Virus record (IMG/VR): IMGVR_UViG_644736364_000008
From: a virus
Lineage: Duplodnaviria > Heunggongvirae > Uroviricota > Caudoviricetes
Reading direction: 5' to 3' (one strand)
Length of the DNA: 64,000 bases
The notes below the pieces were generated by a model. That model did no database searches and had not been told where the DNA came from. It was given only the letters and a program-made list of their open reading frames with translations. Shown here in pieces: positions 47,134 to 52,092 of this stretch (within the stretch, counting starts at the first letter, position 1; every line of letters starts with the position of its first letter). The translations under genes were made by a program, and so were the position numbers.

Positions 47134-47484
47134 TCACTTCAGTCGTTCACGGGCCGTCTTCGCCTTATGACACGGCCAGCACAGGCTCTGCAGATTGCAG
47201 TCTGCATCAGTGCCGCCATGCGCTTTAGGGATGATGTGGTCAACGGTTTTCGCCTCACGCACCACACCGACATGCAGGCACAACTGACACAGGCCTTTGT
47301 CACGCTTCAGCACGCGCGCGCGGATAACATCCCACTTCGAACCGTAGCCGCGCTGGTGACGGGATTGTCCTGGCTTGTATTGTTTCCAGCCTTCGCTTTT
47401 GTGGCTTTCACAATAGCCTGACGGATCAGTGGTGGTTTGGCGGCAGCCGCGAACGCGGCAGGCTTTTGGGGTTCGTGGGGGCAT
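47134..47484 (-). CDS. HNH endonuclease (packaging-associated)
   Basis: 116 aa with CxxC...HIIPKAHGG...CxxCH His-Me finger; adjacent to terminase. Confidence 0.8.
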   Translation of the reverse strand: MPPRTPKACRVRGCRQTTTDPSGYCESHKSEGWKQYKPGQSRHQRGYGSKWDVIRARVLKRDKGLCQLCLHVGVVREAKTVDHIIPKAHGGTDADCNLQSLCWPCHKAKTARERLK

Positions 47485-47586
47485 TTAAAGTGGGATCTAA
47501 CTCTAATAATTTAAAAAATTTAATTGGGTCTTGATATTAATCACATAGACTCAATGCTCTTTAGTTCTTACATAGGTGGTTGTATT

Positions 47587-48027
47587 ATGAGTATCCCCAG
47601 TTTAGATGTTCATAAAGTTGTTAAGTGCGCAGAGCATAAAAAGGCTTTAGATGCAATATCTCTCAAACTTAAGAATAACATTATTGACTCAAGCTCTGAA
47701 TACGATTTTCTTGGCGACACAATAATTTTCAATAAAGATAAAAAAAATAGGTTAACCCTCAAACTTTCAACATATGAACTAGAACTTATTTTCAAAGAAA
47801 CACTGCTAGTCATTGATGAAGCTCCTGTATTGAAGTTTGCTGCCATTGACCCAACCGATGAAAATAACAACGAGCTGATTGATTTATTTTTATCCAAAGG
47901 TGGATTTATTTATATTAGAGAATACAAATCCGAGCCACATTATGAGTATGGCGACACTTCTCTATTTTTACATATACTTGACGCTACTCTTAAAGAGCTT
48001 AAATCTGCAAACAAAATATCCTATTAA
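47587..48027 (+). CDS. AT-rich cargo protein of unknown function (146 aa)
   Basis: Opposite strand to surrounding phage genes, strongly AT-rich, SD aggtgg upstream of ATG at 47587. Confidence 0.6.
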   Translation: MSIPSLDVHKVVKCAEHKKALDAISLKLKNNIIDSSSEYDFLGDTIIFNKDKKNRLTLKLSTYELELIFKETLLVIDEAPVLKFAAIDPTDENNNELIDLFLSKGGFIYIREYKSEPHYEYGDTSLFLHILDATLKELKSANKISY

Positions 48028-48133
48028 ATAAATTTTTGCTAACATAGCCCCGCGCCATGACAAGATTTTCTGTTCTAGATGCAAGGGCTATGTGTGAATA
48101 TCTATAAACAAAAACCCCATCCGGTGATTTTTG

Positions 48134-48385
48134 TCATTTTTTAGCCATCTCAATTGCGGCATCAAAAAGTCGTTCAAGAATAAAATCAGGGTACTGTAAT
48201 TTTTCTTGCTCGATATGAAGCTCATAAATTTTCCCTTCCCACTCCCATTTAAAATTAAATCCAGAAGCAGAAGGTGCGAAATGTGTTTTAGCTTTAGGGT
48301 TAGCGTAACCAGCAACAGTCAACACATCAAACTTAAAATCTTGAGGTTTAATACGCATAATCATATCCTTTGCCAAGTTCATCAT
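48134..48385 (-). CDS. Hypothetical protein (83 aa)
   Basis: AT-rich ORF between the lysis cassette and packaging genes. Confidence 0.45.
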   Translation of the reverse strand: MMNLAKDMIMRIKPQDFKFDVLTVAGYANPKAKTHFAPSASGFNFKWEWEGKIYELHIEQEKLQYPDFILERLFDAAIEMAKK

Positions 48386-48455
48386 TATTCTTCTCGATTA
48401 TAAAACAATGAATAAAATCATTAAAGCATAGACGTTAAATATCCTCAAAATGTGA

Positions 48456-48893
48456 TTAGTTGGGACATTGCGTCCTGATATACTCCTGCAAGTAATTGAC
48501 CTGTGAGGTTATCTTGTCGATTCCACTTCGGAGACGGTAATAATGGAGTTCAGCATCTGCTGTAAGTCTAGGGCTTTCTCCATCGCCCATGCCGCTGGCT
48601 CCGGTCGTTGACTTTGTACAGGTGGCGGCGACTTGCAGGCGCTTATGCCCAGCAGAAACATCAGCACGAAGACTTTCGATAGTCGCATTAGCATCAGCAA
48701 GCTCCTTTGTATATCTGGCATCGAGTTCAGCTACATTACGTTGACGCTTCTGCATATCAGCGATGATGGATGTGGCTTTATCGCGCTGTACTTTGTAGAC
48801 GATGGCGTCATCACGGTAATTATCAACAGCCCATGACAAGCAGACGATGATGCAGATAACCAGAGCGGATATAATCACCGTTACTCTGCTCAT
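48456..48893 (-). CDS. Rz-like i-spanin
   Basis: N-terminal TM anchor then coiled-coil; downstream of endolysin. Confidence 0.7.
48509..48721 (-). CDS. Rz1-like o-spanin lipoprotein embedded in Rz
   Basis: Out-of-frame embedded ORF with lipobox LLGISAC and Pro-rich mature part. Confidence 0.55.
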
Positions 48894-49366
48894 ACCTGAA
48901 TCTCTTTGACCGTTCCGCCGGCTTCTTTGAATTTTGCAATCAGGCTGTCAGCCTTATGCTCAAACTGACCATAACCAGCTCCCGGCAGTGAAGCCCAGAT
49001 ATTGCTGCAACGGTCGATAGCCTGACGAATATCACCGCGATCAATCATCGGTAAAGCACCACGCTCTTTAATCTGCTGCAGTGCAACAGCATCCTGGCTT
49101 TTTGGAGAGAAGTCTTTCAGTCCAAGCTGTTTACGGTATGCATCCCACCAGCGGGAAAGAAGCTGGTAGCGCCCGGCAGCCGTTGATTTGAGTTTTGGGT
49201 TTAGCGTGACAAGTCTGCGAGGGTGATCGGAGTAATCAGTGAATATTTCTCCGCCCACAATGACGTCATAACCATGATTACGTGTCGGTTGTAGCCCATT
49301 ATCCGTTCCTTCTGACCAGGCCACCATATCGAGGAAAGCTTTACGCTGAGGATTAAGATTTTGCAT
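48890..49366 (-). CDS. Endolysin (lambda R-like transglycosylase/lysozyme)
   Basis: 158 aa; AWSEGTD catalytic-Glu motif. Confidence 0.8.
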
Positions 49367-49658
49367 TTTTCACCCCTGTCAGTCGTTCCCAGAAGTACGT
49401 CAGTGCAACCGAACCCATCGCACCACTAATCCCCGCAGTTGCGAGAATCATGTAAATACTGAATCCACTTTCGATACTGATTAGGCCACCAATAACACCG
49501 GTGAATCCTGATACAACTATCTGAGCGAGGGCATTTATCCAGCTCCACGTTGCTTTACTCTGCTTCACATCAATCAGGTAACGGACAAGCCCCCCCCAAC
49601 CTGCGATGATCAGCAAAACAAGCCAGAACGCTCCGGCAAGATTCTCTTTTTCGTGCAT
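49353..49658 (-). CDS. Holin (start at MHEKENLAG; ORF extends to 49757)
   Basis: Three hydrophobic helices, charged C-terminus; overlaps endolysin start. Confidence 0.6.
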   Translation of the reverse strand: MHEKENLAGAFWLVLLIIAGWGGLVRYLIDVKQSKATWSWINALAQIVVSGFTGVIGGLISIESGFSIYMILATAGISGAMGSVALTYFWERLTGVKNAKS

Positions 49659-49809
49659 ATGAATAGCCGCAGTTTCGCCTCCGACAGAAAATCGGAGCGT
49701 GAAATGATATGTTGATTTATTATTAATTCGAAAATTACATTCTAATTCATCAGGCATTGATGATTTTATAATAATAAAGGCCGTTCGTTACGGCCTTTAT
49801 TATTGATAT

Positions 49810-50145
49810 TTATTTTACATCCCAAGGTAGTTCCTCAAGAGAGAAGACTAATTCATTATCAATAATTTCGTATTCTGCATAACCTTCAACCTCTCCTGAG
49901 AAGTTATTGTCAACGCATCCTTCATAATAGCTATATGGTGCTATAAAGTGAAACCCATATTCATCTATCTCTGTGATTTCAAAATTGTAGTAATCGTAAG
50001 AATATCGAATATCATCATCAGAAATAGAACTAAGTACATAGTTATTAAATTTATCGGAATGCTTAACGATAAGTTCTGACAACGCGTCAAGATTCTCTGG
50101 AGAGATATTTCCTAACGGTAATCTGTACTCAACGGCATTAATCAT
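49810..50145 (-). CDS. Highly acidic AT-rich cargo protein (111 aa) between Q/tR' and the holin
   Basis: Low-GC ORF rich in D/E/Y in the late-operon leader position. Confidence 0.6.
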   Translation of the reverse strand: MINAVEYRLPLGNISPENLDALSELIVKHSDKFNNYVLSSISDDDIRYSYDYYNFEITEIDEYGFHFIAPYSYYEGCVDNNFSGEVEGYAEYEIIDNELVFSLEELPWDVK

Positions 50146-50197
50146 ACAACCTCCTTTTTAACTGATATGAGGTTATATAATGTGTTTCAGTACAAGT

Positions 50198-50224
50198 AAA
50201 TAAAAACCCGCTCAACAGCGGGTT
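50198..50224 (-). terminator. tR'-like terminator downstream of the late promoter
   Basis: Minus-strand aacccgc-tgttga-gcgggtt followed by TTTTTAT. Confidence 0.5.
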
Positions 50225-50330
50225 CGTGAAAATTATCAACGGCAGACATACAAAGCCCATCGTTGAGAAAATCTTATCCATATTTTTTGAAAAATGCAAG
50301 CTTCATGTCACTATCTTCGGCGAAAATCAC

Positions 50331-51083
50331 TTATCTCGTCACCTTTCTCAATTGTGTTTCAGCATATGCTTCTTCCTGCCAGCACTTTGTTACTAGTTTA
50401 TCAATTACGTCTGCATATCCTTTGTACCACTGATAATCAGTCAGGTCTGGAACCAGCTTCTGGACATGACGTCGTGCCAGTGTAGTCGGTAAACGGCTAA
50501 ACCGGTTTCCATTGCAACGCCCACAAGTCTTATAAACAGGCGTGCCATGAAGCCGGGTTCTTTTTTCATCCAGGACAATACCTTTACCCTTACACCCTCT
50601 GCACGCCGTGCTGACTTCTCCCTTGCCATGACAATGCTGACACAGTTCCTTCACCCACTCTTCTTTGATAACGGATTCCCCGCTTCTGGAATGTTTCACC
50701 ACTTCGCGCAATACATTATGAAATCCAGTACCAGTACAATGCTCACAGCGAGCCTTACTTGCCGCAGACCTGGAATAATCAGCAAAGGCAAAATTCACAA
50801 GGTAAGGGATGATCTGTAACCGGGTTTCTTCACTCAATTTGTTCAATGTCGGGTTATCCAGTGCCATCGCGTAATTGAGCAGGCCTTCAATCGCAAACTG
50901 AGGATCCTGAACACCAACTTTTGCCAGGAATAAGGCAAACCCAAGCGGTGCTTTCGACTGCACCATCCCCTGCGCAGCCATTACATCCGTAATTGTTAAA
51001 CCACCCGAGCCTGTCGCCGATGCGTCATCGCTCAATTTTGGAGATTTTGGGGAGTAATATTTCGGTAAGGCTTCAAGGTTCAT
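50331..51083 (-). CDS. Late antiterminator Q-like protein (start at MNLEALP)
   Basis: CxxC/HC...CxxC zinc-binding pattern; SD ggaga upstream; directly upstream of late region. Confidence 0.65.
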   Translation of the reverse strand: MNLEALPKYYSPKSPKLSDDASATGSGGLTITDVMAAQGMVQSKAPLGFALFLAKVGVQDPQFAIEGLLNYAMALDNPTLNKLSEETRLQIIPYLVNFAFADYSRSAASKARCEHCTGTGFHNVLREVVKHSRSGESVIKEEWVKELCQHCHGKGEVSTACRGCKGKGIVLDEKRTRLHGTPVYKTCGRCNGNRFSRLPTTLARRHVQKLVPDLTDYQWYKGYADVIDKLVTKCWQEEAYAETQLRKVTR

Positions 51084-51096
51084 GCTCGTTCTCCAC

Positions 51097-52092
51097 TTAC
51101 ACCAGTACGCCAATTGCCAGCGCACGATCGATAAAACGAAATATCAGCTCCAGCTGGGAGCCATACATCTCTTCAAATGCCACGGTATCCGCATGCAGCT
51201 CGTCGTGATGCTTTCTGCACAAAGGCAACACAAAAAGGTCATGCGCTTTTGTACCCATTCCACCCTGTCCGTGGCCTATCAGGTGGTGGGGATCATCAGC
51301 GGGCTTTCCACAACATGCACACGACTGTGTCTTAACCCAGCGCGTGTACTTTTCATTAACCCAGCGGCGACGTTTTGGGCGTAACATAAAAGACTCCGGC
51401 GACTCCGGATCCACTTTCAGCGCCAGCACCTTTTTCGCCTTATCCTGGATGATGCTGGTGGCAGGAACCGAAGGCACAAGGTCACTTTCCCGGGTGACAG
51501 ACGGCACAACAGGCTTCGGTAATCTCAGTGCCTTACGGGCTGCACTTTCCGGTAAGGCATCCGCCAGATCATTACGAACCAGCCACCAGCACAGTTCCGG
51601 CATTGTCACAACGTGACTGTCATCAAAACCGAGATCCCGACGCACGACAGACAACACCCAGCGGGCACAGTTATCCGTTGCCATTGATTCCAGCCGTTCC
51701 GTGAACTGATCGCGAAGCAGGTTATCGCAGTGCCAGCACAGACGGATTGCGCCCGGCGCGTGTCGCATTGTGGTCATGTTCTCGCTGTGCCATCCGGAAT
51801 GAGGCCACTGACAGCCCTTTTCACGAAGTAACCAGCTTTCAAGACATTCCACACCCCCCGCACGACGAATAACTGCCTCATTGCGGAACACGGCCCGAAT
51901 GGCAGGATCATCCGCCAGCGGTTGTGATGCCGCCGGAACGGCACCACTGGCAAAAGATGAATAACGTTCCGGCTCAGGCTCCAGCAGGACACGCCCCTGC
52001 ATAAACAGGGGCATCAGCTCTGAACCGGGCCTGAACAATACGATCCCCATACGCGGGGCAATTTCAGGGGTCAGTAGTGCTCTCACGGTCAC
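51097..52092 (-). CDS. DUF968-like lambdoid prophage protein
   Basis: 331 aa with C-terminal Cys/His-rich region; typical lambdoid nin-region position. Confidence 0.5.
   Translation of the reverse strand: MTVRALLTPEIAPRMGIVLFRPGSELMPLFMQGRVLLEPEPERYSSFASGAVPAASQPLADDPAIRAVFRNEAVIRRAGGVECLESWLLREKGCQWPHSGWHSENMTTMRHAPGAIRLCWHCDNLLRDQFTERLESMATDNCARWVLSVVRRDLGFDDSHVVTMPELCWWLVRNDLADALPESAARKALRLPKPVVPSVTRESDLVPSVPATSIIQDKAKKVLALKVDPESPESFMLRPKRRRWVNEKYTRWVKTQSCACCGKPADDPHHLIGHGQGGMGTKAHDLFVLPLCRKHHDELHADTVAFEEMYGSQLELIFRFIDRALAIGVLV

Follow-up and report, generated by a model that had tools for sequence, protein, structure and literature searches.

A strongly acidic protein of the phrog_13663 family encoded by a moron-type cassette in the late-operon cargo slot of an Escherichia coli prophage

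The gene ORF111 (49810-50145, minus strand; 336 nt) in the 64,000-nt stretch of tailed-phage DNA analysed here (the window) encodes an acidic cytoplasmic protein of 111 aa and is best read as part of a self-contained, moron-type accessory cassette lying between the late terminator tR' and the lysis genes. We class it as a moron that occupies the Q-to-lysis cargo slot; its protein family has no characterised relative. As to its role, our leading proposal, to which we assign a probability of roughly 40%, is that the product of this cassette is expressed in two ways, in the lysogen and after induction, and would serve as a stoichiometric acidic inhibitor of another protein. The region around ORF111 is found with 100% identity in a prophage of E. 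coli UTI89, ATCC 11775, IHE3034, APEC O18 and other strains. The identical protein is encoded on at least 1,000 public contigs and has never been named; its RefSeq entry (WP_000606308.1) is labelled 'hypothetical protein'.

The late switch, the cargo slot and the lysis genes

On the minus strand, the genes for RusA, a KilA-N protein, a DUF968/HNH protein and the antiterminator Q are followed by a 185-nt leader, ORF111, a hairpin, and then the genes for the holin, a GH24 lysozyme and Rz/Rz1. The Q gene (50331-51125, minus strand) is of the Q82/QuuD type (PF03589, E 3e-54; phrog_127, E 1e-108); the UTI89 annotation calls it 'antitermination protein', with a RefSeq version of 753 nt. Downstream of its reading frame we read from the sequence a putative late promoter, pR' (50256-50299, minus strand), that consists of a -35 hexamer TTGCAT (50299-50294), a 17-nt spacer and a -10 hexamer TAAGAT (50276-50271), followed by tttctc-AACGATGGG. 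Since the lambda pR' (TTGACT-17-TAAATT-tgactc-AACGATGGG) has the same spacing and the same sigma70-dependent pause element, we take the window element to be pR' and predict a start near 50264, inside the pause element AACGATGGG (50264-50256). A terminator scan placed the intrinsic terminator tR' at 50196-50225 (minus strand), with a stem-loop at 50225-50204 of the sequence GAACCCGC-TGTT-GAGCGGGTTT and a T tract reaching to about 50198. The tR' hairpin would lie about 40-65 nt into the pR' transcript, giving a predicted leader RNA of about 65-70 nt. A preliminary description of this DNA had proposed a Q-like antiterminator upstream of ORF111 and, between the two genes, a late promoter and a tR'-like terminator at 50198-50224; all three elements are borne out by the PF03589 match, the lambda-like hexamers at 50299-50271 and the stem-loop with its T tract.

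ORF111 occupies the cargo slot of the late-operon leader, downstream of Q, pR' and tR', upstream of the holin gene and on the same strand. From this location behind pR' and tR', in the slot used by Stx cargo, Q-dependent late transcription of the gene is expected. The segment 50202-50400 of the window holds the 3' end of Q together with pR' and tR'. It matches Stx2k and Stx2c phages as well as SfV and mEp460 at 89-90% identity, and ydfT of Qin in K-12 at 85%; in each comparison the similarity breaks off at the terminator. Beyond tR', phage phiSTEC1575-Stx2k carries regulators, tRNAs and stx2AB, and SfV carries orf47/orf48 and another terminator. That ORF111 lies in the 'Stx position', as had been stated in the preliminary description, therefore holds in the sense that the same Q-tR' module also precedes stx2 in Stx2k and Stx2c phages. 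With stx1/stx2 and with orf47/orf48 of SfV, ORF111 has in common both the slot, behind Q, pR' and tR' and before the holin gene, and the variable presence of an indel. It differs from these cargoes in that its protein is unrelated and devoid of a signal peptide, in that it forms a single gene with a terminator of its own right behind, and in that its family keeps the slot across four Q families. Other cargo known from the Q-to-lysis slot includes DLP12 nmpC and, behind ydfT, the csp genes of Qin. In phiSTEC1575-Stx2k, which has the Q-tR' module in common with the window, an IraM-type anti-adaptor gene is annotated just past stx2B (L002:32-355).

The next gene after ORF111 is indeed a holin gene, as previously described: a LydA-type holin (49353-49658; PF16083, E 1.5e-21) opens the lysis cassette and is followed by the GH24 lysozyme (48890-49366) and Rz (48456-48893), all on the minus strand and given here with RefSeq coordinates. 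Rz1 (48509-48721, minus strand; lipobox LGISAC) is out of frame within Rz, and such nesting of an Rz1-like lipoprotein ORF is the usual spanin arrangement; PF03245 was also matched in the lysis cassette. The mechanically called holin ORF (49353-49757) exceeds the RefSeq holin by 33 codons (49659-49757). This extension falls within the AT-rich cassette described below, past the homology limit at about 49690, and is probably not translated. Between Rz and the HNH/terminase genes, a second AT-rich island (47450-48450; GC 29-36%) contains ORFs at 47524-48027 (plus strand, 167 aa) and 48134-48385 (minus strand, 83 aa), neither of which had a Pfam or PHROG match; the island is probably another moron slot.

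The AT-rich cassette and its cis elements

Leader, ORF111 and terminator together make up an AT-rich insertion cassette of about 510 bp (49691-50201, minus strand), as delimited by similarity breakpoints and GC content. On the left, the similarity of the holin module to other E. coli prophages ends at about 49690, and on the right, the similarity of the Q-tR' module to other E. coli and phage modules ends at 50191-50202. The GC content of the cassette is 33%, against 45-55% in the neighbouring genes and 49% in the window. Compared with related prophages the cassette is an indel, and ORF111 within it stands between tR' and a second intrinsic terminator that belongs to the cassette. The latter, a bidirectional hairpin (49769-49805, minus strand) with the core AAAGGCCG-TAACGAA-CGGCCTTT, begins about 10 nt past the ORF111 stop codon. 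About 130 of 5,426 complete E. coli genomes contain the cassette, while the Q-tR' module occurs in about 2,300 of the 5,426 and either the Q-tR' or the holin module in about 3,000. Many E. coli genomes have the holin module without the ORF111 cassette, and the flanking modules likewise occur without it in other prophages.

Variable presence, deviating GC content and an own downstream terminator are among the marks of a moron, and ORF111 bears these three. Like lambda bor and lom and HK97 gp15, morons in the sense of Hendrix and Juhala, it is an extra gene amid conserved neighbours, and the deviating composition, the downstream terminator and the upstream promoter-like element of these genes were seen at ORF111 as well. 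Whereas known morons mostly code for envelope proteins whose expression in the lysogen has been demonstrated, ORF111 is soluble and acidic, and both its promoter and its expression are putative.

This promoter-like element (50172-50200, minus strand) consists of TTTACT (50200-50195), a 17-nt spacer and TATAAC (50177-50172); an alternative -10 would be TATATA with a 15-nt spacer. The TTTACT and TATAAC hexamers are kept in the Salmonella and Citrobacter loci, with a diverged spacer; three loci conserve the pair. The element was not called by a consensus scanner, and its -10 lacks the T at position -7. The window's subgroup of the family has a different and weaker promoter-like element than the larger, P0031-like subgroup, where TTTTTTcATTTCTGAnTTAAAAAaCATTTTTGACATAAc, 11 nt and TAnnnT are found between tR' and the ATG. 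The block of the larger subgroup (L004:5915-5985, with equivalents in L010, L011 and L033-L048) fits TTGACA, 15 nt and TAnnnT, with TG.CATAA and TA...T invariant, and holds a 9-nt direct repeat. Although noncoding, it is more conserved than the protein, the proteins of those loci being only about 45% identical. A degenerate pattern of the block matched 17 contigs among 2.9 million IMG/VR contigs; since all 17 carry the family gene, the block is a component of the cassette rather than of the late leader of the phage. On its sequence, the block is most readily taken for a sigma70 promoter whose -35 is perfect and whose spacer, at 15 nt, is unusually short, but it could be a regulator binding site instead. 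Readings as a sigma54 or an extended -10 promoter were discarded, as the invariant bases fit TTGACA...TAnnnT better. Together with the cassette's own terminator, the conserved promoter-like element indicates that ORF111 expression may not be confined to lytic growth.

The leader of ORF111 may in addition form a 13-bp hairpin (50141-50181, minus strand; arms 50181-50169 and 50153-50141) that would bury the strong Shine-Dalgarno sequence AGGAGG (50155-50150) and the AUG (50145-50143). Its minimum free energy is -13.7 kcal/mol, with a z-score of -1.5 upon full shuffling and of -2.7 when the upstream part alone was shuffled. The hairpin is kept in three related loci, including those of Salmonella and Citrobacter, with one compensatory pair. 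It was rejected as a family-wide feature, being significant only in the window's subgroup and one other locus and weak by the standard shuffle. No known RNA was found in the leader with Rfam, all matches lying below the gathering scores. If a cassette promoter started inside the hairpin, the cassette's own transcripts could, hypothetically, be translated, and read-through transcripts from pR' less so.

The phrog_13663 family and its genomic setting

ORF111 matches the phrog_13663 HMM over its entire length (residues 1-111 of 111; E 9.4e-54), and all of 21 more distant relatives match the HMM too; PHROGs lists the function of this family as unknown. A word-indexed search returned relatives only in E. 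coli, Salmonella (72% identity) and Citrobacter (69%). The profile search added members from Enterobacter, Duffyella and Erwinia, and an exhaustive HMMER search of 1.84 billion representative proteins yielded 26 proteins, nearly all of about 110 aa. Two long proteins from that search, P0019 (DUF11 repeats) and P0029 (low complexity), were set aside as compositional matches, not domain fusions. Overall, the homologues in Salmonella, Citrobacter, Enterobacter, Duffyella and Erwinia are 26-72% identical to ORF111, which on this sequence evidence is a real gene. Phrog_13663 is a small Enterobacterales family, found so far in prophages and viral contigs only. Scans of ORF111 against Pfam, NCBIfam and PADLOC returned nothing, a Pfam scan of 25 relatives gave isolated chance matches only, and sequence-profile searches of the PDB produced nothing significant. 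A tblastn search with two family members against 50,697 GenBank phage genomes gave no match, and no match of ORF111 to a catalytic family was found in any library searched. Searches of the literature by identifiers or by topic retrieved nothing on phrog_13663 or ORF111.

The composition of the protein is as the preliminary description had it. Its claims of a highly acidic 111-aa product, rich in Asp, Glu and Tyr and without a hydrophobic segment, agree with a computed pI of 4.05, a net charge of -19 (24 D+E versus 5 K+R), 12 Tyr residues, and a highest 19-residue Kyte-Doolittle mean of 0.59, from which we conclude that there is no membrane segment. A signal peptide was not found. Acidity is a family trait: all 25 members examined have a net charge between -9 and -20. 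At just 7 positions of the alignment do 70% or more of the members have an acidic residue, which speaks against a conserved phosphate-like charge array. Phe33 is invariant and Tyr48, Cys77, Tyr92 and Trp108 are nearly so; the family motifs are RYS, YFxGCxDxN and a C-terminal LDETxW. ORF111 is a soluble acidic protein, conserved and under selection, and its cassette is a mobile one with a single gene.

To view the gene in its setting, we collected 55 loci, whose neighbouring genes were labelled by BLAST against Pfam-annotated references. The family gene lies between Q and the holin gene on the same strand in 50 of the 55, usually starting 129-340 nt past the Q stop codon and ending 31-204 nt before the holin. 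The Q genes fall into four unrelated groups (Q82/PF03589, Q21/DUF1133, Q-lambda/PF06530 and a 204-aa Duffyella type), the holins into at least four types (LydA-type, holin_8 plus holin_3_7, and holin_2-type among them) and the endolysins into GH24, GH19 and Phage_lysozyme. In nearly all loci, the ATG is preceded at a distance of 57-83 nt by a tR'-like terminator, and another terminator follows 10-24 nt past the stop codon. An N6_N4 methyltransferase gene follows the family gene in the Q-lambda-type loci and some others; it was seen between the family gene and the holin at L011:5516-6568 and in L014, L043, L044, L046 and L047, separated from the family gene by a terminator. The prophage of Citrobacter freundii that carries the 69%-identical homologue also encodes (L022:1181-2275), on the opposite strand and upstream of RusA, a protein of 364 aa with the PF01024 domain of pore-forming colicins.

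The exceptions to this arrangement are a degraded prophage of Erwinia tracheiphila (L006-L009, L025) and an orphan locus near sbcB (L017). In both, the family ORF is intact although the late operon is gone; the E. tracheiphila prophage contains Q fragments and IS elements, and the ORF is intact in all assemblies seen. This suggests that the family gene was retained after loss of the phage. That the ORF has stayed intact where the late operon no longer works speaks for expression independent of Q and for a gain to the host; its survival in a decayed prophage makes such a gain, for instance through lysogenic conversion or defence, more likely than a role in lytic growth alone.

Predicted structure and possible function

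AlphaFold modelled ORF111 with a pLDDT of 74 when given four sequences and of 86.7 (pTM 0.77) with 25 family members. The model has the topology beta1, alpha1, alpha2 and then five antiparallel strands. Its nearest likenesses are alpha+beta rolls of the NTF2-like, cystatin-like and VirB8-like kinds, with scores at the noise border and 4-10% identity; no family HMM of these roll proteins matches ORF111, and VirB8 proteins have a membrane anchor and a periplasmic location, neither of which applies to ORF111.

We infer from composition, size and genomic context a mechanism of inhibition by binding. In the lysogen, a promoter of its own would give ORF111 weak transcription, and after induction the gene would be carried along in the Q-antiterminated pR' transcript. 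The soluble, strongly acidic and Tyr-rich alpha+beta protein would then act stoichiometrically, binding and blocking a protein with positive charge that is made by the host or by a competing phage and probably binds nucleic acids. ORF111 would thereby be a conflict protein, engaged in defence or counter-defence by way of charge complementarity, rather than an enzyme or a part of the lysis machinery or the virion. We also considered, as a rather improbable elaboration, that phrog_13663 represents a new class of conflict proteins inhibiting host defence or rival phages, with the leader hairpin gating translation according to transcript origin: a private promoter starting in or just after the 5' arm of the hairpin would give a translatable lysogen mRNA, while the pR' read-through mRNA would contain the full leader, so that Shine-Dalgarno sequence and AUG would be occluded.

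The composition had initially been taken as reminiscent of DNA-mimic anti-restriction proteins or of immunity proteins. In the first case, the protein would present an acidic surface resembling the DNA backbone and so titrate out DNA-binding defence proteins such as type I restriction-modification systems, BREX or RecBCD during lytic growth. T7 Ocr is of similar size and strongly acidic, its pI of 4.05 equals that of ORF111, and its computed net charge of -28 over 117 aa compares with -19 over 111 aa; acidity is kept in 25 of 25 relatives examined, one face of strand beta5, as read from alignments, displays an E-x-E-x-E stripe with E or D in the relatives, and a DNA methyltransferase as the next gene at some loci hints at a restriction-modification-related neighbourhood. 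The Ocr fold is all-helical, whereas ORF111 is modelled as a beta-rich alpha+beta roll. The search for Ocr- or ArdA-like folds that the preliminary description had recommended thus turned up a beta-rich model and no known DNA mimic among its structural matches; hhalign against T7 Ocr gave a probability of 0.06%, and neither an ArdA domain or fold homology nor any sequence or profile similarity to Ocr or ArdA was found. ORF111 is not a homologue of Ocr or ArdA. It also differs from these immediate-early proteins in its late genomic position: a gene behind tR' would be expressed too late to shield incoming DNA, which makes it a poor fit to classical anti-restriction. What stands of the earlier functional reading is the acidic composition, shared by the whole set of examined members; neither the Pfam, NCBIfam and PADLOC scans nor the Ocr comparison lent it anything further. 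Homology, fold and timing all fail to support DNA mimicry of the classical anti-restriction kind, and we regard a DNA-mimic role as unlikely, with charge mimicry as a possible physical mechanism of ORF111. The nearly invariant Cys77, together with Arg47, Asp45 and Asp79 on the NTF2-like cone of the model, could equally mark a ligand pocket or an active site. ORF111 might then be a small-molecule sponge or a small enzyme whose NTF2/cystatin-like cone holds an immune signal or another metabolite, a serious rival proposition of low probability that draws on the conservation of Asp45, Arg47, Tyr48, Cys77, Asp79 and Trp108 as the putative pocket lining.

The position behind the same Q-tR' module as stx raises the question of lysogenic-conversion or virulence cargo that, like Stx, would be amplified by induction, freed by lysis and active outside the cell. 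In line with this, the gene is enriched, among the listed matches, in extraintestinal pathogenic E. coli (UTI89, IHE3034, APEC O18) and has been kept in the plant pathogen Erwinia tracheiphila after prophage decay. However, the protein lacks a signal peptide and resembles no family of toxins or effectors, many prophages of non-pathogenic Enterobacterales encode homologues, and the strain bias may reflect clonal spread of one prophage; we consider this role very unlikely. Small acidic proteins are typical of immunity proteins, and in most loci the family gene is immediately upstream of the holin, so that an immunity or antitoxin partner, or else a regulator of the lysis genes (antiholin, endolysin inhibitor), might come to mind. 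Yet no conserved toxin gene adjoins the family gene, its neighbours being Q and the holin or methyltransferase gene (50 of 55 loci), which speaks against the immunity-protein idea of the preliminary description. A lysis regulator would have to cope with at least four unrelated holin types and three endolysin types, sometimes with a methyltransferase gene in between, and would have to do so without a membrane segment, while related prophages with the same lysis cassette manage without ORF111. Because the neighbours vary in this way, both roles appear highly improbable.

The stoichiometric binding inhibitor remains the reading we prefer; if ORF111 were neutral cargo, it would be just one more hypothetical moron. 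The slot between tR' and the lysis genes holds highly consequential cargo in lambdoid phages, such as Shiga toxin, and induction hugely amplifies the genes placed there. That the family has kept this slot across four unrelated Q systems and several lysis cassettes, with a cis element and a terminator of its own, and survives in a decayed prophage, points to a selected function that has not been described. ORF111 is a compact candidate for a new defence or counter-defence protein in prophages of uropathogenic and avian pathogenic E. coli.
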